Below the pieces are notes generated by a model, which made no database searches, had not been told where the DNA came from, and was given only the letters and a program-made list of their open reading frames with translations. 64,000 nucleotides of DNA from Escherichia phage vB_EcoM_Goslar. How positions within the stretch are numbered: position 1 is the stretch's first letter; each line of letters starts with the position of its first letter. Where the stretch lies: the sequence record NC_048170.1, one strand, 5' to 3'. Below are positions 14,455 through 64,000 of the stretch, piece by piece. The position numbers and the translations under genes are program-made.

Positions 14455-14493
14455 TTTAACAGCATAAACCCTTCCTGCGTAAGGCAGGAAGGG
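14455..14493 (-). terminator. rho-independent terminator-like hairpin (10-bp stem CCCTTCCTGC, loop gtaag, then UUUAUGCUGUU on minus strand)
   Basis: Inverted repeat at 14469..14493, just downstream of 14508..15005. Confidence 0.55.
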
Positions 14494-36972: not shown

Positions 36973-37005
36973 AGACGGCATAAAAGCCTCCCATTACGGG
37001 AGGCT
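36973..37005 (-). terminator. rho-independent terminator (8-bp stem AGCCTCCC/GGGAGGCT, loop attac, UUUUAUG on minus strand)
   Basis: Inverted repeat 36985..37005 just downstream of 37018..37566. Confidence 0.6.
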
Positions 37006-44932: not shown

Positions 44933-44961
44933 CTTTATCTCCTTAACAGGTGCTGGTAACG

Positions 44962-44988
44962 CAGCATAAACCCTCCCCGAAGGGAGGG
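44962..44988 (-). terminator. terminator-like hairpin CCCTCCC-(UUCG loop)-GGGAGGG followed by UUUAUG on minus strand
   Basis: Inverted repeat 44971..44988 immediately downstream of 44999..45556. Confidence 0.55.
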
Positions 44989-44998
44989 CGGTTGGCGA

Positions 44999-45556
44999 TT
45001 ACTCCATCCATACTTCTTCGTCGTAATGATTCTCTATCGCATTACGCCAAAAACGCACGGTGTCCAAACTAATCGGTGCGTAAAAATGTTGGTCAACGCC
45101 AACGTTAAGTCCGTTGGCCTTCGCTAACATACAGCGATGAATATGCCCGAATAGATTAAAGTAACCTGGGTTTCTTTCGCTGGGCTTATGGCATAGCCAG
45201 TAGGATTCGTCATTGCTAATCGGCAACACCAACGGGTGTTCATAAACAGCAGCAAACCCCATACCGAGCAGTTTATCACGCCACGCTTCGAAGCTTAATC
45301 CTGTCGCTTTGTATGCGTCTTCGTCCCAATTCCCCATTACCAATTGAACCTGGATATCAGAACGAATGGCTTCCACGAACTCAAACTTACCCCAATCACC
45401 TAAATGCCATAACACACTGTTCTTTGGAAGCTTGTTGATGGCTTTCAGCATATGCTGGTTCATATCGGCGACGCTTGCGAACGGACGGCGTGAATACGTC
45501 CATGTACGCTCGCTATCAAAATGGGTATCCGACATAAAGAAGATGGGTGGGGTCAT
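44999..45556 (-). CDS. metallophosphoesterase (calcineurin-like phosphatase family)
   Basis: Ordered motifs SDTHF (D-x-H), GDWG, GNWDE, GHIH. Confidence 0.75.
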   Translation of the reverse strand: MTPPIFFMSDTHFDSERTWTYSRRPFASVADMNQHMLKAINKLPKNSVLWHLGDWGKFEFVEAIRSDIQVQLVMGNWDEDAYKATGLSFEAWRDKLLGMGFAAVYEHPLVLPISNDESYWLCHKPSERNPGYFNLFGHIHRCMLAKANGLNVGVDQHFYAPISLDTVRFWRNAIENHYDEEVWME

Positions 45557-46035
45557 TGATCTAATTGCTCCAGAAATGCACGACCCGATTTACTTGCTTT
45601 TAAATGCTGTTCTGCGGAAGTAAGCAGAAGATCGGTTGGCGTGTATGCAGCGCTACCTTTCCACTCTGTTTTCAGTTTACCCTCTTCGATACTGAACTGA
45701 ATCAGTTGTTGGGTGCCGAAGTTAAGCGTGTTCGTCGCAGCGCTAAATACACCACCCATCATGCTGTAACCAAAGACTTTCACGTCTTCCGTGTAGAAGT
45801 CATTGTCGATCAATTTGTTCTGGAGTTCGAGTTGGTCGGACGGCAGCAATCCCCCATCAAAGACGCTTAAAATACCCGCCAGGCGATACATACTCACCTT
45901 TCCTGAAACGCCCACCACGTAATTGCCGTACAGTGTCTCTTCCAGTTTAGCAACAACGGTGCGATCGTCGGAGGTTTTCATCGAAACCTCAATACCATCA
46001 CCAACTTCTGTTAACGTTAAATCAACGATACTCAT
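45553..46035 (-). CDS. hypothetical protein (160 aa)
   Basis: ORF track; 4-nt overlap with phosphoesterase start. Confidence 0.45.
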   Translation of the reverse strand: MSIVDLTLTEVGDGIEVSMKTSDDRTVVAKLEETLYGNYVVGVSGKVSMYRLAGILSVFDGGLLPSDQLELQNKLIDNDFYTEDVKVFGYSMMGGVFSAATNTLNFGTQQLIQFSIEEGKLKTEWKGSAAYTPTDLLLTSAEQHLKASKSGRAFLEQLDQ

Positions 46036-49133: not shown

Positions 49134-50585
49134 ATGAAACTCAAACAAAGCTGGAAAGACGAACTCCTTGCGCTAGTAAACAGCAAAAACAGCTTACAAC
49201 TGACGTTAGACGATGTAAAATTTGAACTGACGGCACCGGTAAGCGAAGTGCCTGGAACGGTTGTTGTTACGATCAAACCGAACGACGATAGCCGTTACTT
49301 TAACGAGCAATCTCTGACCTACGTTCGTCGAGACATCGCTAAAAACTTCACCGGGATCCCGTTACGGGTTATCGTTAAAAATGATACCGCCGTAAGGGAT
49401 ATCATCAATACGATCGCTGAACGTTACGGATTAGTATTTGACACAACCGTCGACTTCCTCGAATCCGAGCTGAATAAACAAATTACGTTCGCAGACACCG
49501 GTATTAAAGACATTACGGTTCCGGTTGCAAACACGTCTTATGTTTGGGCGGGTAATCTTCAGTTCAATATCGCTAACGATACGTTGAGCTTGATTACGAT
49601 CATCAAGCAAACCAATCTTACGAATCTGGTTTATCTGGATGGTGTTGAAGCTGACACATCGGGTTCGTTACTATTAGCAACAACCTCGGTTATCGGCGAA
49701 AACGGAAATGCCGAAACAACTGAAGGTGTCCTTGACGCCGCGTACTTCCAGAATATCCTGAACGTCATGGTTCGTTATGGTGATATTAACAGCGAACAAA
49801 TGCAACAAGCAATGCAGACAATTAACCAAAGCGAAGACGCTCGTAGAGTAGAAGTGCGGTCATACGGTGACGCCGAGTTACTGGTAACCACCAAGAAAGA
49901 TTGGGTTATCGGTAGCCTTAAGGGTGCTATGGTTGTTGGTCACGCTTCACCTAAACCGATCCAATACGTTCTTAAAACAAAAGGCGGCACCATTATATTG
50001 TCATTAGATGGTTGGACAAATGTCAATATCGATTGGGGTGATGGGAATAAGACGACGCAGGACTCAGGCGATAATGAATATCAGCACAATTATGCTGACA
50101 CTACAGAACGTACAATCGTCGCTACGGGTACCCCTACCAACACTGAAGATACAGACGTACAGCAAAGCTTCACCGGTGGTAACATCACTGAAATCGTTGA
50201 CTGGAACAACGGATTACCTAAGGCCCCATCATTCCTTGCGGCGAACAGTTTAATTAAGGTTCCCGATTATATCCCGGCATATTGGACGTCGTTAGAAAGT
50301 ATGTTTACGCGATGCAGCGCTATTAACGACGTGAGCATCACCAAATGGAACACCCGCAACGTTACTTCAATGAAGGACCTCTTCTACGGTTGCGCTACGT
50401 TCAACCAACCGATCGGTTCGTGGGATGTTTCGTCTGTTAAGAATGCAGACAATATGTTGTCTGGGTGCTTCGCGTTCAATCAGGATCTGAGTGGTTGGAC
50501 ATTCCCGGCAGGCACTTCACACATCAACTACGACGGCATGACCGCCGCATGGCAGCCTGATCACAAACCACGCTTCACCGAGTAA
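49134..50585 (+). CDS. receptor-binding-like protein: shared N-terminal module plus C-terminal DUF285-like repeats
   Basis: N-terminus MKLKQSWKDELLALVNSKNS...RRDIAKNFTGIPLRVIVKND...YGLVFDTTVDF aligns with 6868..7413 and 1..1081; C-terminus WNTRNVTSMKDLFYGCATFNQPIGSWDVSSVKNADNMLSGCFAFNQDLSGW. Confidence 0.6.
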   Translation: MKLKQSWKDELLALVNSKNSLQLTLDDVKFELTAPVSEVPGTVVVTIKPNDDSRYFNEQSLTYVRRDIAKNFTGIPLRVIVKNDTAVRDIINTIAERYGLVFDTTVDFLESELNKQITFADTGIKDITVPVANTSYVWAGNLQFNIANDTLSLITIIKQTNLTNLVYLDGVEADTSGSLLLATTSVIGENGNAETTEGVLDAAYFQNILNVMVRYGDINSEQMQQAMQTINQSEDARRVEVRSYGDAELLVTTKKDWVIGSLKGAMVVGHASPKPIQYVLKTKGGTIILSLDGWTNVNIDWGDGNKTTQDSGDNEYQHNYADTTERTIVATGTPTNTEDTDVQQSFTGGNITEIVDWNNGLPKAPSFLAANSLIKVPDYIPAYWTSLESMFTRCSAINDVSITKWNTRNVTSMKDLFYGCATFNQPIGSWDVSSVKNADNMLSGCFAFNQDLSGWTFPAGTSHINYDGMTAAWQPDHKPRFTE

Positions 50586-50656: not shown

Positions 50657-50995
50657 TTAGAACCAGAGTTCTTTCATGAAGTAGGCTTCCACATCGTAGA
50701 TAAGCCATTCGTCAGGGATTTCTAAAGGATCGTCTTCGGTTAAGGTCAGCATGTGTAAGGCGAACGCACGCTTAATATCGTTCAGCAGTTTCTCGTCGTC
50801 GTAACCTTCTGGTAGTTTACGGTCTACCAGCTGGGTTTGTTTATAGACATCGCGGAACGCTTCAGGGTTGTGTTTATCCATCGGGAATTGTTCAGCAGCC
50901 TGAACCATCGAAAGCGTCCAGCTTACAACATTGTAACGCTCACCGTTAATTTCACTGAACTGATCATCGATTAAACAAATTTGTTGTACGTTCAT
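50657..50995 (-). CDS. hypothetical protein (112 aa)
   Basis: ORF track. Confidence 0.4.
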   Translation of the reverse strand: MNVQQICLIDDQFSEINGERYNVVSWTLSMVQAAEQFPMDKHNPEAFRDVYKQTQLVDRKLPEGYDDEKLLNDIKRAFALHMLTLTEDDPLEIPDEWLIYDVEAYFMKELWF

Positions 50996-51953: not shown

Positions 51954-53528
51954 TTACAATTCAAAATCTTCATCGATAACACGCTGGGTAAGCACCTTGT
52001 CGCTGAAGAACTCCACCTTGCGCTGATGGTATTTACGGTGCGCTTCGATAGATGTACATACCAGATACCAGAACGTTGGTGTCATTCCTTCGAACTTCCC
52101 TTTCAGCTGACGTAGGCGTCCCAATACCTGAATGTTACCGGTTCGTGACCCCATCGCTAACGTCATGAACGTCATCACCAAGTCAGGGAGGTCGATACCT
52201 GTACCTGCCGATTTCACCGTCGTAACGCTGATATCGTTATCCAACAAGACCATGAAATCTTCTTCAGCAGTATAAGGACCAATCTCTAACTCAGGAATAC
52301 GTTCACTGAGATAATGCGATAACGACTTACACATATCAACGGTTGCACAATACACCAGCATCTTCATGCCTTCCTGATACTGGTTCATGAAACCTTTGAT
52401 GATAACGGTATAGATAAAGTTGAAATAGGCGAGTTTGAGTTGCTTGTTCTTCATGATAGACTGTTCGAATATCGTGTGAGAATAAGAACCCCCAAAGCCT
52501 TTGTATCTGACTTTATCTGTACTGCGTAATCGATACGTTACCGCATTTACCGCAATGTATTTCTTGTATTCGCATTTCGCATAACGTGCTTCTTTCGGAT
52601 ACATCAAATACAACATCCGTTCGATGAACGGATCGTCGGACACTGCCGTTGCTGACAGATAGATGATTTCCGGAATATTCGCGTAACACTTCACTTTGAA
52701 CAAGAAATGCAATGCTTCGTGACATTCATCATGGATTAACAACCCAATGCCTGTTTTCTCCCAGAACTCGACAGGATGGAAAACATAAGGTGCGACACAG
52801 TTGTTCTTTTCATAATCGGTTATGTATCTCTGAAACATGTTCAGCGAGAATAACGCAATTTTGAAATCCAGCTCACCTTGTTCCACCAACGTCTGGAATT
52901 CCAGCATGCTGTAACGAGGAATGTCTGGATGTGGTGGGTCAGATTGAGCTGTGCCACGTATCTCGATAACATCGCCCGGTTCCATACCGAAGAAACTTAG
53001 CAGTGAGCTACGCCAACCAGGCATGTATCTCGGTGACAGGATAATACCCGTCCGTACACCGCGTCGGAAGGTGATCTCCTGCGACATGGCTGTTTTACCA
53101 GACCCCGTGCCTGCGGTGTTTAAGCTCATTCTGAAGGGGGTATCCTTACCCCCGTCCATGTACTCCAACCATTCTTGTTGATCTTCACGCCACGGAAACT
53201 TCCATTTCTTTACGAACTCCACTTCCTTACCTGGCACTGGATCGTGATAAACGATTTCCAACCACTCTTTTCGGATTCCTCGAGAGAAGATAAAATCCAA
53301 AAACGATTTCAACTGTTCGCGGAGTAAGTATACCTCGCTATAATCGCTTCTCGCTGCGGCATACGTGTTTATGGTATCGGTAACCATTCTCCGTGTACGA
53401 GGGTCACGCCGTTTCCTCAGATGCAAACAACGGTCTCGAAGGTAATGGCCGATAAGATGGGCAAATCGAAGTCCGTATCCGCTCAGCCTCATGCCATGCG
53501 AGAAGACGTCGATACGAGCTAACTTCAT
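51954..53528 (-). CDS. superfamily II DExH-box helicase
   Basis: Motif I GTGSGKT, motif II LIHDECHE, motif III LSATAV, motif V AGTGIDLPD, motif VI QVLGRLRQ. Confidence 0.65.
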   Translation of the reverse strand: MKLARIDVFSHGMRLSGYGLRFAHLIGHYLRDRCLHLRKRRDPRTRRMVTDTINTYAAARSDYSEVYLLREQLKSFLDFIFSRGIRKEWLEIVYHDPVPGKEVEFVKKWKFPWREDQQEWLEYMDGGKDTPFRMSLNTAGTGSGKTAMSQEITFRRGVRTGIILSPRYMPGWRSSLLSFFGMEPGDVIEIRGTAQSDPPHPDIPRYSMLEFQTLVEQGELDFKIALFSLNMFQRYITDYEKNNCVAPYVFHPVEFWEKTGIGLLIHDECHEALHFLFKVKCYANIPEIIYLSATAVSDDPFIERMLYLMYPKEARYAKCEYKKYIAVNAVTYRLRSTDKVRYKGFGGSYSHTIFEQSIMKNKQLKLAYFNFIYTVIIKGFMNQYQEGMKMLVYCATVDMCKSLSHYLSERIPELEIGPYTAEEDFMVLLDNDISVTTVKSAGTGIDLPDLVMTFMTLAMGSRTGNIQVLGRLRQLKGKFEGMTPTFWYLVCTSIEAHRKYHQRKVEFFSDKVLTQRVIDEDFEL

Positions 53529-55531
53529 AACGTGATTACATCCTCCGGTTTAGGTTCTTTACGCGGTAAAAGCATGTAGTCGATCGGATGATCCGGCTTC
53601 ATGGTTGGGATATAACTGTTCGGGTTTTGGAACGCATCCAGTTGCTCTTGGTGAGCGAACTTCATACTCAAGGAGCGCATGTTCATGTTCTTCTTGAAGG
53701 TACTGAAGTATCGTGTTGTTCCCTGTTTCGGCATGCGATAATCTTTCGTGTGTGGTGAACGAATCATGCTGGCGTAGAGAATAACATCGAGATGCGAAAG
53801 GTTCATTCGCAGACGCTGGGCACACAGACGATGCCAATAGTACAGCACGTTTGCAACTTCTTCCGGTGTCGCTTCGTCTTCCGAAAGGAATCCGGCACTG
53901 AAAGAACCTTTCCCGAATTTGAATTCACGTTCGATTTCTTTTGCGTATTCCATCATGTTTTTGTGGATTAACGGCATCTGGAATAACGTACGTGAATTGT
54001 CCCAATGTTTCAAGTCGAAAATCACAATCCCGTCAGACGTCACTTCCCAGCTATGGCGTTTAAGATAACGGATAAACGCTTTACTCGGGACAACGGGACG
54101 TCCACAGAAATCGAAATTGACTTTGAGCTTACGGTAGCTTTCATCTTTCCTGTCGTAAATCTCCATATCACAAAGCGTCATGTTAAACAGGCGTTGCGGT
54201 ATCAGCGAACTGATTTCTTCCGCTTCCGCTACATCGTACAACATGTTCGCAAGACCTAACTTCATCTTAATCAGCACGTGTTTACCTTTCAGCTCACGTG
54301 CGAGTTTGATGTCGTTCATATTCTGGCTGTAGCGAAGGATATGTTGATATTCCGGTGGGATTGGTGCTGTGGATACCGTTGACGAACCATCATGGTGTTT
54401 GGTAGAAAGAATGTTCTGCGTTACCTGTTGCGAACAGGTACGCGCTGCGCCATCGCCGACATTATCGGTTAGTGCGAAGTTATGACTTAATTCACCGTAA
54501 CACGTCGTACATACCCCAGCAGGATCGGGATGATGACAATAGTTAACGGAGCGCATACGCACTGTGGTGCCGATCAATTCTTTCATGTGTGGTTGTATCG
54601 CTACCAACGAACCGTCATCGCGAATAATGAATCGACCGTGGAAGCCACGCAGGTCGGTCTCATCACGGATTGGCATCGGGATGGTCTCTTTACTACCACA
54701 ATCTCCAGGATGGAGTCGTTGTACAACCGCTGTCGCTATCTGAAGTTCACGACCGAAATATTCAGACTTCTTGATCTGCTCTTTGTTGAACAGCAACGAC
54801 TTCGCCGCAGAACGACTTTCTTTCAAGCTGTCGGGAAGAGAGATCAAACCTGCCGCGTACGACCGCATTACTGGATCACGGAATATCTCGGAGTTAATAT
54901 CGGTCAAGAATCCACGCATCCCAATACACTGCAGCACCTGCCCAATCGAAACGTGTTCGGTTCGTACCGCACGCGCAATAGGGTTTGCGTGTAACGTTTT
55001 ATCGGTGCTCAGTACCTTGGTCAGTTTCTTGTATGCGCTTTCGATACCTTCACGGGTGGGTTCCGCTTCGGCGATGATTTTCTTAACTTCAGGATGTACG
55101 GTAATCTGATAAAAATCATCCGCGCAAATAGTCGTTACGTATTCCTCCAGCGCATACGTAAAGAAGTTATATACATTGTTAAACATATCGAACAATGCTT
55201 TCCAGAGAACCTCACGATTCTCTTGTGGATAAGCATACATGCATTGACGATACGCGGCGCTTTGCAACGCAACCGACGAACCAGCAGTAAACTTGCGTTT
55301 ATCGACCAGGTTCTCTTTTGTCAATGGTGTCTCAGGATACATGCGATGCACAGACCAGTGCATGTAACTAAAGAAAATGCGTCGCGCACGCAATTCATGA
55401 ACGCCATCGTCCATCTCGATATATACACGGTCATTAGGCTGTGCCCACTCGAATACTTCATCAACCGGCCAGTGCATAAGCTCGCGTGCCCTCACACGAC
55501 GTTTCGTGGTGGTCGTCTGTGTTATAGTCAT
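53525..55531 (-). CDS. multisubunit RNA polymerase beta-prime-like protein (C-terminal half homolog)
   Basis: VRMRSVNYCHHPDPAGVCTTCYGEL...AARTCSQQVTQNILSTKHHDG parallels E. coli beta-prime [22 protein letters not shown]...[22 protein letters not shown]; upstream IGQVLQCIGMRGFL parallels LNVLQYFISTHGAR; no NADFDGD motif, consistent with a split subunit. Confidence 0.55.
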   Translation of the reverse strand: MTITQTTTTKRRVRARELMHWPVDEVFEWAQPNDRVYIEMDDGVHELRARRIFFSYMHWSVHRMYPETPLTKENLVDKRKFTAGSSVALQSAAYRQCMYAYPQENREVLWKALFDMFNNVYNFFTYALEEYVTTICADDFYQITVHPEVKKIIAEAEPTREGIESAYKKLTKVLSTDKTLHANPIARAVRTEHVSIGQVLQCIGMRGFLTDINSEIFRDPVMRSYAAGLISLPDSLKESRSAAKSLLFNKEQIKKSEYFGRELQIATAVVQRLHPGDCGSKETIPMPIRDETDLRGFHGRFIIRDDGSLVAIQPHMKELIGTTVRMRSVNYCHHPDPAGVCTTCYGELSHNFALTDNVGDGAARTCSQQVTQNILSTKHHDGSSTVSTAPIPPEYQHILRYSQNMNDIKLARELKGKHVLIKMKLGLANMLYDVAEAEEISSLIPQRLFNMTLCDMEIYDRKDESYRKLKVNFDFCGRPVVPSKAFIRYLKRHSWEVTSDGIVIFDLKHWDNSRTLFQMPLIHKNMMEYAKEIEREFKFGKGSFSAGFLSEDEATPEEVANVLYYWHRLCAQRLRMNLSHLDVILYASMIRSPHTKDYRMPKQGTTRYFSTFKKNMNMRSLSMKFAHQEQLDAFQNPNSYIPTMKPDHPIDYMLLPRKEPKPEDVITL

Positions 55532-55676: not shown

Positions 55677-56162
55677 TTATCCAGCTTTCTGTTGTAAAGC
55701 GTATGGATCCATAGCGTCTGACATATCCGCAAAAACGGTGAGAATAAACCCCTTTATCTGTCTCACCTCGGTTACACGAAGCCCTTTATCATTGCGATAT
55801 ACGTTTTCTTCACCGACTAACTTTGGTCGAATAACATAAACTCCATCAACAAGCGGGAATGTCGGATACGGATAAATACCAATACGAATGATGTTTGGGC
55901 GATCGCCTAGAAGGTCACGTCCAAACTTATCGACTCGACCATAAATCGCCCCATCCGCACCTTCCACCTCAATGAGATCGTTTCGAATATCCTGAAATAG
56001 CTGCTCTAACGTGTCGGCGGGATACGCATATGCGACGCCTAACGCTGGATCCTCAATGGTTTTGACACTGAATCCGTTAAGCCAAACAATCCGTTCATCC
56101 GCCCATGTTTCTTCATATACCGTTAATCCATCGCCGTATATGTTGGCGTGTGCTATCTCCAT
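55677..56162 (-). CDS. hypothetical protein (161 aa)
   Basis: ORF track. Confidence 0.45.
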   Translation of the reverse strand: MEIAHANIYGDGLTVYEETWADERIVWLNGFSVKTIEDPALGVAYAYPADTLEQLFQDIRNDLIEVEGADGAIYGRVDKFGRDLLGDRPNIIRIGIYPYPTFPLVDGVYVIRPKLVGEENVYRNDKGLRVTEVRQIKGFILTVFADMSDAMDPYALQQKAG

Positions 56163-56276
56163 AATCTCATTTCCTCTTATACGTTAGGATAGATGACATG
56201 TTTGATATACGTTGCCTTTGCATATATTGCTTTATTTCCGTCAGAAATAACGGAAAATAAAAACAACGACATAGTT

Positions 56277-56306
56277 CCCTCCCACCTCCACATGGGAGAG
56301 GGAGGG
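56277..56306 (-). terminator. hairpin CCCTCCC-acctccacatgggaga-GGGAGGG, U-rich 3' flank on minus strand
   Basis: Inverted repeat; loop shares cacatggg with hairpin at 57135..57163. Confidence 0.45.
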
Positions 56307-56319
56307 CTATTCGTGTTTA

Positions 56320-56682
56320 TTACTCTATGCTGTCTTCTTCAGCACAATCCTCTTCTGAACCATCGAACGTTTTCTGCACTGCAGTGGTATCCCAGTTGGC
56401 AGCGTAATCAGCCATCGCTTCGCGCAGTGCTTCCTCACCAGCATCACCGGCCAGGTCAAGTACAACCAAACCTTGCGCGACGTTTTGAGCGACAGTATCA
56501 ATAACGGTCGCATCTTCTTCAAAACTACGTACCGGTTCAATGGTGCCTACATCAACAGCATAGTTCGTGGTCGCTGTAAGCACGGCGACTTGTAGCGCAT
56601 CACTATCTTCATCGTGCAATGCTGCTTCAATACCGATTGGACGGGCCAGTTCTTGTAGTGTTAATTTGCGAATTAAGTTCAT
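56320..56682 (-). CDS. highly acidic protein (120 aa)
   Basis: Asp/Glu-rich throughout, ends ...DGSEEDCAEEDSIE. Confidence 0.4.
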   Translation of the reverse strand: MNLIRKLTLQELARPIGIEAALHDEDSDALQVAVLTATTNYAVDVGTIEPVRSFEEDATVIDTVAQNVAQGLVVLDLAGDAGEEALREAMADYAANWDTTAVQKTFDGSEEDCAEEDSIE

Positions 56683-56704
56683 TATGTTTTTCCTCAGGTG
56701 AATG

Positions 56705-57055
56705 TTAGCAATCGTTTAAAACTTTTTCGATACGATGGTTGACGAATTCATTGAACGACTCTTCGGCTTGTTCGATAATTTCATCAACATCGATATCTAA
56801 TTGTTGGGGTTGGATGACATGCTCTTTCATGGTTTCTAGCCAGTATTCGGCTTTAACCATAACGTTAGCGACTTGTTCGACCTGACTGCGTATGTCGACG
56901 ATCTGGCAATCAGGATTGTTAATATCGATGATGTGTCCGTGGTGTTTGATAAACCCTAACTTATTCGACGCCCTTACCGCATCGCGGGCAAGCTCTTGCA
57001 AGATTAAATTATTTACATAGTTCACTGCTATGGAACGACTTTCTTTATCACTCAT
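56705..57055 (-). CDS. hypothetical protein (116 aa)
   Basis: ORF track. Confidence 0.4.
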   Translation of the reverse strand: MSDKESRSIAVNYVNNLILQELARDAVRASNKLGFIKHHGHIIDINNPDCQIVDIRSQVEQVANVMVKAEYWLETMKEHVIQPQQLDIDVDEIIEQAEESFNEFVNHRIEKVLNDC

Positions 57056-57134
57056 ACCAGGGATCCTCTTTTAAGTGTTCACATTCTAGTGTTAAGCAGT
57101 TAAAATAAACCGTCCCTTTAATCAGCATAAACAT

Positions 57135-57163
57135 CCTCCTCCCACCACATGGGCAGGAGGAGG
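57135..57163 (-). terminator. hairpin CCTCCTCC-caccacatgggca-GGAGGAGG downstream of 57175..57585
   Basis: Inverted repeat; related to hairpin at 56277..56306. Confidence 0.45.
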
Positions 57164-57174
57164 CGTAATATGCA

Positions 57175-57585
57175 TCAGAAAGGAGGACGATCTTTAAATT
57201 CTAACAACGTGTCTTCGAAGCAAGCGATGAGTTCAGACTGTAATTCGGTACGGCCTTGTTCACCGAAGAGTTCCAGCAACATTAACCCCCGAGCGGTCTT
57301 CGTAGCAACCTCTTCGCAGATGCGGAGATCGTGAACTTCATCATCGTTGACATCTTTACGCAACTGTGCCGCAATGGGCTTAAGATTGCCGTTTTCATCG
57401 TGTTCGTCACGAAATGCATCATAAGCCGCATCGATGTTCGCGATCCGTGTCAATCCTTCAGAATCCCGCCAATCTCGATATAATCCAAGAAGACGATTAT
57501 GATTCTTCGTTTTGACGTTCGGTGCTGGAAGGTTGCGCAACAGATGTGGCGTAATCATTGCTATCACGCTATCCGAATGATTCAT
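57175..57585 (-). CDS. hypothetical protein (136 aa)
   Basis: ORF track. Confidence 0.4.
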   Translation of the reverse strand: MNHSDSVIAMITPHLLRNLPAPNVKTKNHNRLLGLYRDWRDSEGLTRIANIDAAYDAFRDEHDENGNLKPIAAQLRKDVNDDEVHDLRICEEVATKTARGLMLLELFGEQGRTELQSELIACFEDTLLEFKDRPPF

Positions 57586-57596
57586 CGTATACCTCG

Positions 57597-59765
57597 TTAG
57601 CTTTCGCAGTCATCTGCGTCGATGATTTGTCCGCCAGCAACGTTCAGCTGATGATACAGAATCCTCAACGCACGGTTGCCACCAATGGGATACTTCTCGA
57701 AGTTGGTTGCAATAGGAATCGCTGACGGCTTATCGGTCGCATAGATACTTTCAGTGATGCTATCCACCTGTTTTGGATTGTTCGCATAATCCATAAAGAC
57801 GCTTGCGAACCATCCGCCAGCAAAGGCGGTAACTTCGCGATGTTCAGATTCGCCACAGTAACGAGTTGGTTGCTCTTTACCCGGAGAACTGTATTTATCG
57901 CTATTACTGAGTTTCGACGGTAATCCATGCGCTTGCAATTTAGGAATACCCACAGCCGACCAATCGTTCGCCGTCTTCTCCAACATCATGATGTACGTGT
58001 CACCGATCGCAATATCGTTCTTGGTTGTCCGCCACTGCCCAGAACGCCCACGGTATCGTACAGGACCTTTCTTCAACGGGAACTCACGAATCAGATTCTC
58101 CATACGTTCTGAACCTGCTGCGATACTGTCCGTCGGGATATAAACTTCCGTACCGTGGCGTTGTACATACCGTAAATGATCCCATTTATCCTCATCCGTG
58201 ATACAGTATTTTTCAACAACCTGTTCCACGAATTCAGGACTGACGATATAGTAGTAACGCATTAGTGTGTTCCAAGCGGTCTCCAGATCGCCTGCATCCA
58301 TCACTGGTTTCAGTTCACGCATGATCTGATCGCCAACACCGTTGATGTAAGGTGCATTAACACGACTTAAACTCATCCTTTTGATTACCGTGCTATCGTC
58401 AAACATAAAGTCTGCAACGTTACCCCATTGGTCAACCGGCATCTCATCATCTTCCATGATGTCGGTTACGACGAATTTATCACCCGCCATACCAGTGAAT
58501 TTAAACCCGATACCTGGAACAACGTCGTACGTGTACGTGATGGTCACACGCCAATCATCGAGATTCTCTTTGCGGTAATCGCGGGTCGGTAACACATGAC
58601 GTAGCTGTCCATTAGGATTGCGGATATCAATACCATGTTCAGCATCAGCCAGGTTCAACCACCACATCACCGTTTGATGATGACGTATCGGCGTACCAAC
58701 GCGTTCACGTTCATACTTACGAACAGCATCCTGAATTCGGGTGTAAAGCAAACCGATTGCGTTCTCGTATTTCAGGAATTGACGATACGGAGGACGCATC
58801 TTCTCTTCCATCATAATCGCACGCTCGCGGGCTTGACGTCCAGAACGACGATGCCGGTCGCTGACAACATCGATATCCGTTACACGCGCATTCGGTTCAG
58901 CGTAAGTGAGGTCATCGTAAACATAATCCACACGCTGAAGATTACACGTCATCATGTCAACAACGCTGAGGATAGGATCTATTTCGCGTGTTGCTGCAAG
59001 TAACCCATCTTTACGAATACGCTCACCGTTCTCGGGTATTGCTTGATATACCTCATCATCGCCGTAGAGATTGATTGGGTATCGCGATTTACCTGATGTG
59101 ATTGTTCGCTTCTCAATGCCGGTACTGGTGAAATGTTTCAATACACCACGACGGGCAACACCACCATCCTCGATACACTGATAGAAGCTACCGAAACACA
59201 CTTTACAATCGCGACCGTAACCCCACTCGCGTGTTTCTTGATTGATCGCTGGGCTTTCCATCAAACGAGAATATCGCGGTACGATCTGGCCTCGACGGAG
59301 GGAATGGAACAAGTTGGTTGGTCGAAAACGGAAACCGTACTGCTGATGCATGATGTGATGCTCAGGCACTTCAAGCAAGCGTAGTTCGTGGCGGTTACCA
59401 TCCTCTTGGTTTTCATACAGCACGTAATGCATCGTGTTTGTTTTGATGCTGTTTGCTGTATGCCCCGGTTGGAAACGTGGGATGATATCTATGATGCGAG
59501 ATTCGACTGGAAACTCTACTGACCAAGTGTTCTGTCCGTACTGGTATTCAATCCCCGTCGTTAGTCGGGACGGTTTCGCATCTTTGATAACCAACGCTTG
59601 GCTAAGATGTCCACCAAACATCGCAGCGCGCTGTGCTGAGTTATAATGCAATAGCCCGTTAAGTCCAGTCCCTACGCCAGTATACTCCTGTTTAATGGGA
59701 ATGATTTTACCTTCAGCGATTGCCTGCTTCACAGATTCATAAAGAGGTTTTTCTTTATAATGCAT
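57597..59765 (-). CDS. multisubunit RNA polymerase beta-like protein (C-terminal half homolog)
   Basis: FKFTGMAGDKFVVTDIMEDDEMPVDQWGNVADFMFDDSTVIKRMSLSRV parallels E. coli beta [47 protein letters not shown]; also YIMMLEK versus YMYMLKL and a C-terminal segment parallel to GQRFGEMEVWALEAYGA; start placed at ATG 59765 preceded by AGGAAG (ORF track 57597..59930). Confidence 0.6.
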   Translation of the reverse strand: MHYKEKPLYESVKQAIAEGKIIPIKQEYTGVGTGLNGLLHYNSAQRAAMFGGHLSQALVIKDAKPSRLTTGIEYQYGQNTWSVEFPVESRIIDIIPRFQPGHTANSIKTNTMHYVLYENQEDGNRHELRLLEVPEHHIMHQQYGFRFRPTNLFHSLRRGQIVPRYSRLMESPAINQETREWGYGRDCKVCFGSFYQCIEDGGVARRGVLKHFTSTGIEKRTITSGKSRYPINLYGDDEVYQAIPENGERIRKDGLLAATREIDPILSVVDMMTCNLQRVDYVYDDLTYAEPNARVTDIDVVSDRHRRSGRQARERAIMMEEKMRPPYRQFLKYENAIGLLYTRIQDAVRKYERERVGTPIRHHQTVMWWLNLADAEHGIDIRNPNGQLRHVLPTRDYRKENLDDWRVTITYTYDVVPGIGFKFTGMAGDKFVVTDIMEDDEMPVDQWGNVADFMFDDSTVIKRMSLSRVNAPYINGVGDQIMRELKPVMDAGDLETAWNTLMRYYYIVSPEFVEQVVEKYCITDEDKWDHLRYVQRHGTEVYIPTDSIAAGSERMENLIREFPLKKGPVRYRGRSGQWRTTKNDIAIGDTYIMMLEKTANDWSAVGIPKLQAHGLPSKLSNSDKYSSPGKEQPTRYCGESEHREVTAFAGGWFASVFMDYANNPKQVDSITESIYATDKPSAIPIATNFEKYPIGGNRALRILYHQLNVAGGQIIDADDCES

Positions 59766-59796
59766 AGGACTTCCTATTATCGAATTGAGGTACGTC

Positions 59797-60150
59797 ATGT
59801 CTAACACGCCCCTGAACGACTTTCTTAAGACAAACCCCGATGACCTCATCCACGATCTTGATTTCAGGAACGTTGTTGAGATGCATCTGGAATATTTCAA
59901 AAATGCCGGACTGGTCTCTACGATAGACATACCACCCGAACGCGCCTACGAATTCGATGGTAACTTTTATGGATTGTGTCGTGTTCTGCTCGGCGAGGGT
60001 AGCGAACCAATGCACTGGATCACCCTGAGACTCAATGGTTATCGCGACCCTACGGAATACACCGCCGATGTTCTAACCATGAAGATTGTCGATACAAGCG
60101 CAATCAACACATTAAAACAACAGTACCGCACAATCCACTACAGCGCTTAA
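59797..60150 (+). CDS. hypothetical protein (117 aa), lone plus-strand gene
   Basis: ORF track 59785..60150; ATG 59797 preceded by GAGG; followed by hairpin. Confidence 0.4.
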   Translation: MSNTPLNDFLKTNPDDLIHDLDFRNVVEMHLEYFKNAGLVSTIDIPPERAYEFDGNFYGLCRVLLGEGSEPMHWITLRLNGYRDPTEYTADVLTMKIVDTSAINTLKQQYRTIHYSA

Positions 60151-61551: not shown

Positions 61552-63138
61552 TTAGAAGTTGCCTTTGGTAGTTACCGCATCCACCAGGTTAAACAAATCA
61601 ACACTCAGCTTATACACCTCCTGCTGGCTACGGTTGAGCAGCGGGCTGTATGCGGATGGGTTGATGTTCGGCATGGTGTACGGAATAGGTGCAGAGCCGT
61701 CAACGCTGATCTTGAACTGGCTGTCCAGGAACAGGTTAATCGCGCCGCTCACCATAACCGCATTCGGGTTGTTACCCAACATGGAGGGTAGGATATTGGT
61801 AATCATGTCAGAACGCATTTGTTCAGCAGCACGGTTACAATCGTATCCTTTAATGAACGGTACAGCGTCGGTAACCGCAACCGCCCACTGACCAGGCATG
61901 ATACCGAGTTCTGGGTGACCATGGTTGTCAGCAATGAAACGGAACGACTCCAACATGCGATACGTCATCGCAGCAGGCATCATCGCAGCAAGCGATGAGC
62001 AATACAGCGTTGGATAATCGATCACGTCCCAGCTCTGGCTGTCGGTCGGCATCCAACCAAACTCGGTGGTTGCTGATGTACCACGACGAGCTTCCACATA
62101 CGGGAATAACGTTAAGACGTCACGGATATGTTCACCGAACATCCGTTTCATGTCAGCCCAACTCAGGCTGCCGCTGAAAGCGAATCCTTCATCACGCATA
62201 ATCGCACCGAATACCGGATGTGCAACCAGCGGTTCTTCACGAACAGCTTGAGCGGCTTCTACGTAAATATCCTCGTTCTCTGCGCTACCTGGATGAGACC
62301 CGCTTTCGTACGTCTGACGAATAGCCCCAACATTATCGAAGGCTTTTCTCAGATAGATGGTTGGGATGTTCGTATCGGCACTAGCTGGTTTGATTTTCTC
62401 TGTTGCGAAACACATTGCTGCTTCCACACCACGGAAAACCGGTTCCGGTTGCGGTGGGTAGGATGTACGATGAACCACGTCAGCGTAGGCGGGATCGAAC
62501 TGCTGCATTACGTTCTGCATGGCTGGGTCCATGAACTGGTTATCAAAACCACCATTGCCCACCCAACGTGCTGTCGATGCATAAGTCAGCGTATCCTGAA
62601 CACGAGTACTGAACTGAACATCGCGATTAACAGGGTCGTACGCACCGGTCAAAAGGTTCGTTGCGTCCATCGGGGTCGCGCGAACGATTTGCTTACCGAA
62701 CATGTCCGTTGTGGTTGTTTCGGTTACCTGGATTACGTTCGTGAAGAAGAACACCAGTTCATTCGGCAGATCGATAGCACGCGTTGTAAACGCATCGAGG
62801 CTTACAGAATGGTCGGTGTATCCAGAAATGTAATGGACACGCTTGGTTCCTGGTGCAAGGGCCAAGGATTCTTCTACAGCCATCATGAAATGGAAACGAC
62901 GTGTGCCCCAACCATTCGCAATCTCCGAAACCCCCTCAGGTTCTGCAGACTGCTGCAACAAACCGGTTGCAAGCTTATTGATTGCTGATGGTGTTGTTGC
63001 CGTACCGAACCGCGTCGTGTTAATAAAGTCTTCGATGCTACGCATGCTATCTGCGTGGAATCGTAGTGGACGACGTTGTACGTTGTTGTACGGTGCGGTT
63101 TCAACCATCAGTATTTCACGAACATTCATCGGGATCAT
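61552..63138 (-). CDS. hypothetical protein (528 aa)
   Basis: ORF track; long uninterrupted ORF. Confidence 0.5.
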   Translation of the reverse strand: MIPMNVREILMVETAPYNNVQRRPLRFHADSMRSIEDFINTTRFGTATTPSAINKLATGLLQQSAEPEGVSEIANGWGTRRFHFMMAVEESLALAPGTKRVHYISGYTDHSVSLDAFTTRAIDLPNELVFFFTNVIQVTETTTTDMFGKQIVRATPMDATNLLTGAYDPVNRDVQFSTRVQDTLTYASTARWVGNGGFDNQFMDPAMQNVMQQFDPAYADVVHRTSYPPQPEPVFRGVEAAMCFATEKIKPASADTNIPTIYLRKAFDNVGAIRQTYESGSHPGSAENEDIYVEAAQAVREEPLVAHPVFGAIMRDEGFAFSGSLSWADMKRMFGEHIRDVLTLFPYVEARRGTSATTEFGWMPTDSQSWDVIDYPTLYCSSLAAMMPAAMTYRMLESFRFIADNHGHPELGIMPGQWAVAVTDAVPFIKGYDCNRAAEQMRSDMITNILPSMLGNNPNAVMVSGAINLFLDSQFKISVDGSAPIPYTMPNINPSAYSPLLNRSQQEVYKLSVDLFNLVDAVTTKGNF

Positions 63139-63139
63139 T

Positions 63140-64000
63140 TTATTTTTTTCCTCTTAAATTTACTACGTGTTCATTTAATCGAACAACTAATTGCACAAGC
63201 TGCTGACGGATATCTGCTGGACAAAGCATCAATCCTTTACGGTCAGCTGGGACTTTCTCAAGGATTTCCGGGCCTGCTGCTGAAACATCCCAGTCCCATT
63301 CACAAAACGCATCGGCCACCATGTTAATACCGACAACCGGTAAAGTTGTACGTTCATCTTCATACATGGCGTGTGGATACAATTTATTGACAGTAATGAT
63401 CTCCTGTGGTTTTAATTGGTGGATAATCTGATAAACATCGTCGCGTTTAACCTGGATACCTACGGTCAGCGCTGCCAGTTGAGGAAAACCCCAATGGTCT
63501 AATAAGCAAGCTGCAATCGCTAACGCTTTTGCTTGATGCACGGCTTCAATCGGTGCCAGACTTCTCGCCGGAAGATGGCTATCAAGCAACCATTGTGCCA
63601 GTGCTCGGCATCCGCGGTTGATTGGTTTTAACTCAACGGTGTCATCATGTTTAGCGTACGTGTATCCGTCGTAACGTTTTGCGATACGCGCATACATGTC
63701 TTCAACTTTACCGTAAGGTGCTGTTTCGTCGACGTCGTGTAACACACGTTCCATCTGGGTAAGATACGCGATGTCAAGAATGAGTACACGCGGTGAACGT
63801 TTATCTTTCACCATCAACGCATCAATCACGCCTTGACTGTCTTCATCTTGCGCGTTCCCTCGTGGGGTTTTCTCACGAATCGGTCCGCTGAAACGTCGTT
63901 CCGTACAAAGGTTATTCACGTAGCTAAAGATCAGTGTTACCAGATGCGTACAACTCACCAACACCCCATCTTTAACGACAGGCTGTACGGCTTGGTCCAA
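63140..64000 (-). CDS. hypothetical protein, partial (5' end beyond window)
   Basis: ORF runs to window edge; first codon in window is TTG, so true start lies outside. Confidence 0.45.
   Translation of the reverse strand: MDQAVQPVVKDGVLVSCTHLVTLIFSYVNNLCTERRFSGPIREKTPRGNAQDEDSQGVIDALMVKDKRSPRVLILDIAYLTQMERVLHDVDETAPYGKVEDMYARIAKRYDGYTYAKHDDTVELKPINRGCRALAQWLLDSHLPARSLAPIEAVHQAKALAIAACLLDHWGFPQLAALTVGIQVKRDDVYQIIHQLKPQEIITVNKLYPHAMYEDERTTLPVVGINMVADAFCEWDWDVSAAGPEILEKVPADRKGLMLCPADIRQQLVQLVVRLNEHVVNLRGKK

Follow-up and report, generated by a model that had tools for sequence, protein, structure and literature searches.

Small acidic genes between the RNA polymerase genes of phage Goslar

Goslar, a jumbo phage of E. 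coli that forms a nucleus, belongs to the family Chimalliviridae, and the window analyzed here is a 64,000-nucleotide stretch of Escherichia phage vB_EcoM_Goslar (sequence record NC_048170.1). On the minus strand, at 56320–56682, an ATG-to-TAA open reading frame (ORF) encodes a protein of 120 amino acids and 12,870 Da, gp168 (YP_009820853.1). A GAGGA ribosome-binding site (RBS; 56691–56695, minus strand) is located 8 nt 5′ of the ATG, within the 22-nt spacer between gp168 and its upstream partner, gp169 (56705–57055, minus strand; 116 amino acids, 13,441 Da, pI 4.5). The two genes are closely coupled because only this spacer with its RBS separates them. Two more small genes lie on the same strand: gp170 (57175–57585; 136 amino acids, 15,583 Da) upstream of gp169 and gp166 (55677–56162; 161 amino acids, 18,120 Da, pI 4.3) downstream of gp168.

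The four small genes are flanked by genes for subunits of the non-virion RNA polymerase (nvRNAP). The upstream flank is gp171, an nvRNAP beta-like protein of 722 amino acids (57597–59765, minus strand; PHROG 3295, E 2e-180), and the downstream flank is gp165, an nvRNAP beta′-like protein of 668 amino acids and 77,395 Da (53525–55531, minus strand; PHROG 3015, E 5e-170). The longest ORF at gp171 would encode 777 amino acids (57597–59930); a start at Met56, the codon at 59765, fits the 722-amino-acid gene calls in relatives, and the published mass of 83,024–83,025 Da is that of the 722-amino-acid form. Both flanking proteins are labeled nvRNAP in Table S4 of the Goslar virion proteome study (bioRxiv 10.64898/2026.04.21.720040). 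The earlier note on this DNA had placed gp168 in a run of small genes just upstream of the polymerase beta homolog. The run of four small same-strand genes is present, but in the direction of transcription gp168 lies downstream of the beta-like gp171 and upstream of the beta′-like gp165.

gp168 contains 27 acidic residues (22.5%; 14 Glu and 13 Asp) and six basic residues (two Lys and four Arg). The pI, which the earlier note had suggested computing, is 3.5–3.6 by titration calculation, with a net charge of −21; the Biopython value of 4.05 is the floor of that routine and not the true value. gp168 has the lowest pI among approximately 85 non-overlapping, gene-sized ORFs in the window, for which the next value is 4.03 and the median 6.6. 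The earlier description of a strongly acidic, 120-amino-acid protein at 56320–56682 was accurate, with 27 acidic versus six basic residues in an intact ORF, although "dominated by Asp and Glu" slightly overstates a composition in which alanine (19 residues) is the commonest amino acid.

gp168 is a conserved gene with conserved acidity

The gp168 ORF is a real gene and not a chance ORF, because its dN/dS is 0.07 at a dS of 0.92 (versus L001, the most divergent close relative) and because tryptic peptides of exactly its sequence have been published. Genes neighboring gp168 showed similar dN/dS behavior in the same comparison. The window ORF is Goslar gp168, and this identity is secure. Its computed mass of 12,870.0 Da compares with 12,870.1 Da in Table S4 (bioRxiv 10.64898/2026.04.21.720040), and twelve window ORFs, gp168 and eleven others, have computed masses within approximately 1 Da of the values in that table. 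The published peptides EAMADYAANWDTTAVQK (residues 88 to 104 or 105) and ATTNYAVDVGTIEPVR (residues 37–52) match the gp168 ORF exactly. Homologues with 89–99% identity occur on contigs of approximately 240 kb in E. coli, Shigella, and Salmonella assemblies, and the 90% cluster that contains gp168 has a member named HOV27_gp168 from Escherichia phage vB_EcoM_Goslar. When the region was compared by nucleotide and protein BLAST with collections of annotated phages, plasmids, and complete E. coli genomes, no match was returned; the phage collection evidently does not contain Goslar or its close relatives. The protein was already known as a RefSeq hypothetical protein and as an entry in the 2026 proteomic table, in neither case with a function.

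A word-indexed search of 5.8 billion proteins with gp168 returned close copies only, and an exhaustive HMMER search of 1.84 billion representatives returned its own cluster and a single 126-amino-acid relative with 53% identity. A profile search added no further members. Zero Pfam families matched gp168 at E ≤ 1, PF12699 included, matches to NCBIfam were far below the cut-offs, and a profile search of the PDB produced only chance matches to enzymes (E ≥ 0.045) and no mimic. When gp168 and its three small neighbors were compared with Pfam, PHROGs, NCBIfam, and PDB, nothing rose above chance. As judged by these searches, the gp168 family is a sequence orphan restricted to Goslar-like phages and the one 53%-identical relative.

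Residues 1–99 of gp168 are almost invariant among close copies. Residues 100–120 form a sequence-variable tail of approximately 21 residues that always contains 8–9 acidic and 0–2 basic residues. The 53%-identical relative retains an acidic residue at 21 of the 27 positions that are acidic in gp168, so the acidity of gp168 is itself conserved. A charge-hydropathy plot places the core on the folded side and the C-terminal tail on the disordered side, so that gp168 looks like a folded, conserved acidic core followed by a disordered polyacidic tail. AlphaFold2 predictions had a mean pLDDT of 38.4 with 23 sequences and 43.5 with nine sequences (the 53%-identical relative included), both too poor for surface-charge analysis. 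The published AlphaFold 3 model of gp168 had no known structural match (bioRxiv 10.64898/2026.04.21.720040).

Relationships among the four small genes were also compared. A 38-amino-acid segment of gp168 (residues 56–93) resembles residues 85–122 of gp170: two independent gp170 orthologues matched the gp168 segment by BLASTP (E 6e-5 and 1.5e-4), a profile-profile comparison with hhalign gave an E value of 7e-5 and a probability of 63%, and Smith-Waterman scores were 4.6–8.2 sd above composition-preserving shuffles. These alignments suggest distant tandem paralogy or a shared module, confined to the 38-residue segment. The resemblance between gp168 and gp169 is limited to an N-terminal motif of 14 residues, L-x-[LI]-QELAR, which has no other occurrence in the six-frame translation of the window; because the motif was defined after it had been seen, it is a lead rather than an established result. 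Paralogy between gp168 and gp166 and between gp169 and gp170 was rejected on comparison. The gp170 gene (57175–57585) has a 53%-identical allele (L005, 8001–8414) in phages whose neighboring genes are 93–99.6% identical to the window; gp170 is a local mosaic or hypervariable gene beside the strongly conserved gp168.

Hairpins bound the gp169–gp168 pair within a lineage-specific insertion

Two similar hairpins, both on the minus strand, bound the gp169–gp168 pair. The upstream hairpin (57135–57163), located after gp170, has a 12-bp GC-rich stem, CCTCCTCCTGCC-CATGT-GGTGGGAGGAGG, and is followed by TTTATGCTG. The downstream hairpin (56277–56306), CCCTCCC-T-CTCC-CATGT-GGAG-GT-GGGAGGG, begins 13 nt past the gp168 stop codon and is followed on its 3′ side by a T-rich tract and then by a second small hairpin (approximately 56235–56256). 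Both are GC-rich; in each, a CATGT loop joins a polypyrimidine arm on the 5′ side to a polypurine arm on the 3′ side. In L001, the stem of the upstream hairpin is kept and the loop bases alone are changed, while the stem and flanks of the downstream hairpin are almost unchanged. The 22-nt gp169–gp168 spacer and the other intergenic sequences are also kept in L001, despite near-saturated synonymous sites in the genes. We infer that the hairpin-bounded gp169–gp168 pair is a separate expression unit. A sigma-70 promoter scan found nothing above background, as expected because the phage uses its own polymerases.

Among annotated phages, the nearest relatives are Klebsiella phage Eowyn and Xanthomonas phage Xoo-sp14, whose beta subunits are approximately 33% identical to gp171. 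In both, the two polymerase genes are directly adjacent and the gene order is otherwise kept, so that the four small genes, of which gp166 is the fourth in the direction of transcription, constitute a lineage-specific insertion. A more distant relative, L004 (beta subunit 66% identical), has orthologues of gp170 (30% identity) and gp168 (52%) in place, and gp169 is absent.

The arrangement of an intergenic GC-rich polypyrimidine/polypurine hairpin with TTTATGC(TG) recurs on the minus strand of the window, at 57118–57163, approximately 44957–44990, approximately 36978–37005, and approximately 14455–14490, and a hairpin of this type is also found at 56277–56306. The 15-mer GTTTATGCTGATTAA occurs 12 times in the window with three or fewer mismatches, versus 2.3 occurrences expected, and it contains TATG, which the phiKZ nvRNAP needs at late promoters (PMC4666361). 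The interpretation of hairpin plus TTTATGC as a terminator joined to a phiKZ-type TATG late promoter for virion genes is unsupported, because the genes that follow the four other sites have products that are undetected or present at approximately 1 copy per virion. The element may serve in transcription termination, alone or combined with a promoter, or in RNA processing. A 38-codon ORF on the minus strand (56177–56293) is the only candidate for the annotated gp167 and overlaps the two hairpins downstream of gp168. Its product is absent from proteomic Table S4, and the ORF is probably not a real gene.

gp168 and gp169 are abundant in virion preparations

Purified Goslar virions have been analyzed by label-free quantitative mass spectrometry (bioRxiv 10.64898/2026.04.21.720040). 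gp168 was detected with 50% coverage and eight peptides at 146–344 copies per virion (median approximately 219), an estimate to which the authors assign a copy-number error of about ±50% and whose signal, among the peptides listed, comes mostly from one dominant peptide (bioRxiv 10.64898/2026.04.21.720040). Its neighbors gave approximately 92 copies (gp169), 2.8 (gp170), 1 (gp166), 0.25 (gp165), and 0 (gp171) per virion in the same study. gp168 is translated and accumulates in purified virion preparations. Both gp168 and gp169 are enriched there, at approximately 219 and 92 copies versus 0–3 for gp165, gp166, gp170, and gp171, in a sample in which contaminating assemblies were present. The gene pair delimited by the hairpins coincides exactly with the pair whose products are abundant in these preparations, and gp170, on the other side of the upstream hairpin, is found only in traces. 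The enrichment of gp168/gp169 over the equally acidic neighbors gp166 and gp170 is more than 50-fold; because those two proteins are also small and acidic, charge alone is an insufficient cause of the co-purification of gp168 and gp169.

gp168 is one of ten high-copy proteins that lie outside the cryo-EM model, and neither sequence nor AlphaFold 3 model comparison predicted a function for any of the ten (bioRxiv 10.64898/2026.04.21.720040). GFP tagging was applied in the same study to gp60, gp61, gp208, and gp209 only; all four were packaged in the virion, and two of the four were injected. The virion preparation also captured nucleus fragments and PhuZ filaments, with apparent copy numbers of approximately 126 for chimallin and 170 for PhuZ (bioRxiv 10.64898/2026.04.21.720040).

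Other abundant proteins encoded in the window and unmodelled by cryo-EM are also acidic: gp158 (45553–46035) has approximately 926 copies and a pI of 4.3, gp162 (50657–50995) approximately 127 copies per virion and a pI of 4.05, and gp161 (49134–50585), a DUF7941 protein, approximately 111 copies per virion and a pI of 4.4. This pattern comes from a small sample within one 64-kb window. The charge of gp158, gp161, and gp162 is not commented on in the proteome study (bioRxiv 10.64898/2026.04.21.720040).

gp168 as a candidate polyanionic virion cargo

gp168 is probably a virion-associated, packaged polyanionic cargo protein, and packaging is favored because each of the four high-copy proteins tested by GFP tagging was packaged. 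In the mechanism that we propose, the gp169–gp168 pair would be expressed apart from the surrounding polymerase genes, as a unit within a lineage-specific four-gene insertion in what is otherwise an early polymerase cluster. The product would be carried in the virion as cargo without symmetric order, most likely inside the capsid, and might be expelled together with the DNA, like several other high-copy proteins of Goslar. The polyanion could then occupy the nucleic-acid-binding surface of a basic partner, which might be a phage cargo packaged alongside it or a DNA-binding protein of the host encountered at entry; this electrostatic mechanism is speculative and is drawn from amino acid composition alone. 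We consider the proposal in its entirety, a virion cargo from a separate unit that acts electrostatically, to have about an even chance of being correct, with most of that weight on the virion-associated cargo and not on the mechanism. Against this proposal, a protein of such acidity would not obviously sit well with densely packed DNA, and hairpin plus TTTATGC is not found 5′ of abundant virion proteins elsewhere in the window.

The composition of the virion sample also allows that gp168 is an abundant late non-virion protein attached to a co-purifying assembly, such as nucleus-shell fragments, PhuZ filaments, or assembly intermediates, where it could serve as an assembly chaperone or scaffold-like factor. 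Small acidic helical proteins are common among scaffolds and chaperones. Nucleus fragments and PhuZ filaments were present in the preparation at copy numbers like that of gp168, which was outside both the cryo-EM model and the GFP-tagged set (bioRxiv 10.64898/2026.04.21.720040). We regard this explanation as possible but rather doubtful, given that all four of the high-copy unmodelled proteins tested were packaged in virions and that co-purification favored gp168/gp169 more than 50-fold over neighbors of equal acidity. The location of gp168 within the polymerase gene cluster, on the same strand, suggests another role, in which gp168 would serve the nvRNAP as an accessory subunit or help in its assembly or import, and import of the phiKZ nvRNAP needs dedicated phage factors according to a recent preprint (10.64898/2026.09.21.753271). 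The approximately 220 copies of gp168 versus 0–0.25 for the nvRNAP subunits amount to a more than 800-fold gap in the same sample, which argues that gp168 is not stoichiometrically bound to the nvRNAP there; in addition, the purified phiKZ nvRNAP consists of five subunits, none of them small and acidic (PMC4666361), and in Eowyn and Xoo-sp14 no gp168-like gene sits between the adjacent polymerase genes. A polymerase factor is thus very unlikely.

The earlier note had proposed, on the grounds of acidity and size, that gp168 might be a DNA mimic or anti-defense factor. In its conventional form, this would make gp168 an early cytoplasmic anti-restriction or anti-defense protein of the Ocr or ArdA type, produced from the early polymerase operon and directed at DNA-binding defense enzymes of the host, to which it would bind. 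Ocr of phage T7 is the classic example of a DNA mimic that inhibits type I restriction enzymes, and it is the first protein made after infection; it is not known to occur in virions, whereas gp168 is abundant in virion preparations. The two proteins are alike in size (116 versus 120 amino acids), in extreme acidity, and in an identical basic count of two Lys and four Arg, with 34 acidic and six basic residues in Ocr (PMC3439906) and 27 and six in gp168. They have no sequence or profile similarity, and Ocr is an elongated dimer with DNA-like rows of charge, whereas gp168 is known here from its sequence and from low-pLDDT models. An acidic excess like that of DNA-mimic families is present in gp168, but this feature is necessary and not specific. 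The conserved acidity of gp168, its location in a lineage-specific insertion, which is typical of accessory genes, and the early class of the homologous phiKZ polymerase genes (PMC4666361) are also consistent with a mimic. However, gp168 has no similarity to any known mimic or anti-defense family in Pfam, PDB, NCBIfam, or PHROGs, and its near-invariant core is under strong purifying selection, unlike many arms-race genes. The hairpins would insulate the gp169–gp168 unit, and because gp168 is abundant in purified virions and the flanking early gene products are not, it is not simply co-expressed with the early polymerase genes. Goslar DNA is shielded by a vesicle and then by a protein nucleus, and chimalliviruses already exclude DNA-targeting defenses physically (PMC11077065; bioRxiv 10.64898/2026.04.21.720040); this shielding lowers the need for an anti-restriction mimic, though some need remains. 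We therefore find an early Ocr-type protein unlikely, and the DNA-mimic label for gp168 is a guess from composition.

The virion abundance of gp168 shifts the default reading from an early cytoplasmic factor to a packaged or virion-associated protein, with which a mimic delivered together with the DNA is still compatible. In that case gp168, and maybe gp169, would be a pre-made polyanionic nucleic-acid mimic that travels in the capsid and leaves it together with the genome. Such a protein would be active within the first seconds of infection, when no phage gene has been expressed and the protective vesicle or nucleus is still incomplete, as a decoy for host DNA-binding defense or nucleoid proteins; alternatively, it might hold co-packaged DNA-binding cargo, for example the virion RNA polymerase, away from the DNA up to the moment of delivery. 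A packaged mimic is improbable in our assessment. If true, it would represent a new delivery mode for mimics and a new component of early chimallivirus infection.

Comparison with known packaged proteins

For gp168 as a virion cargo, the closest functional analogies are the co-injected proteins of the T4 IPI* type and the high-copy cargo proteins of Goslar and phiKZ. T4 IPI* is a small protein of which each head contains approximately 10^2 copies; it enters the host with the DNA and blocks a host restriction enzyme on arrival. T4 internal proteins carry an N-terminal capsid-targeting sequence, and the Dar proteins of phage P1 are also packaged in the capsid and co-injected with DNA. gp168 resembles the IPI*-type proteins in its small size and in having approximately 10^2 copies per particle, and the common N-terminal motif of gp168 and gp169 may, by analogy, recall a shared targeting sequence. 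Unlike the T4 internal proteins, which are mostly basic, gp168 is extremely acidic, and there is no sequence similarity between them.

Within the Chimalliviridae, the PF12699 "inner body" family includes phiKZ gp93 and Goslar gp58; gp168 differs in having no PF12699 domain. The Goslar proteins gp60/gp61 and gp208/gp209 are, like gp168, high-copy proteins that are unseen in the cryo-EM maps and have no predicted function, but their packaging was shown by tagging, whereas gp168 is known from proteomics. gp168 also differs from other Chimalliviridae cargo in being encoded inside the polymerase cluster, far from the structural genes, and in being limited to Goslar-like phages.

At present, gp168 is an orphan hypothetical protein like many others of this jumbo phage. 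This analysis ties the window ORF to the published proteomic record, delimits the gp169–gp168 unit and places it in a lineage-specific insertion, describes the conserved-charge tail of gp168 and the putative module that it has in common with gp170, and provides evidence against the polymerase-subunit role suggested by genomic position. If gp168 is packaged and injected, it would join the poorly understood proteins that nucleus-forming jumbo phages deliver with their DNA to establish infection, and with its extreme charge it would then offer a simple and testable candidate electrostatic decoy or chaperone.

Other features of the window and of Goslar-like genomes

Directly upstream of gp171 and divergent from it is gp172 (59797–60150, plus strand), an inner-baseplate protein in the cryo-EM model. 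There is almost no intergenic space between the divergent starts, so structural and polymerase genes are tightly interleaved at this point. Upstream of the polymerase cluster are two adjacent minus-strand genes (61552–63138 and 63140–64000), each of which has 528 codons in relatives. No similarity was detectable between their products (24% identity over 54 amino acids), and a search with one of the two 528-codon genes gave only a match to a PHROG of unknown function and no solved structure.

The gp164 helicase (51954–53528) has 524 amino acids in the window and 753 amino acids in L001 (13109–15370) and L006 (12074–14335). The difference is a 228-amino-acid insertion that falls exactly within the Walker A motif of the L001 and L006 proteins (GTGSGK | ALALHT...IVTHN | T) and that the window copy does not have. 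The insertion has a weak match to a Hom_end-associated Hint domain (E 0.0014, below the cut-off), and its sequence bears features that are hallmarks of an intein.

Goslar-like contigs of approximately 235–260 kb were found in many public assemblies of Salmonella isolates (Typhimurium, Enteritidis, Newport, Weltevreden, and Chester) and also in assemblies of Shigella flexneri, S. sonnei, and E. coli, O157 included. One gp168 variant was present on 100 contigs. For a strictly lytic nucleus-forming phage, the occurrence of such contigs in isolates suggests either carrier-state persistence in cultures or widespread contamination.
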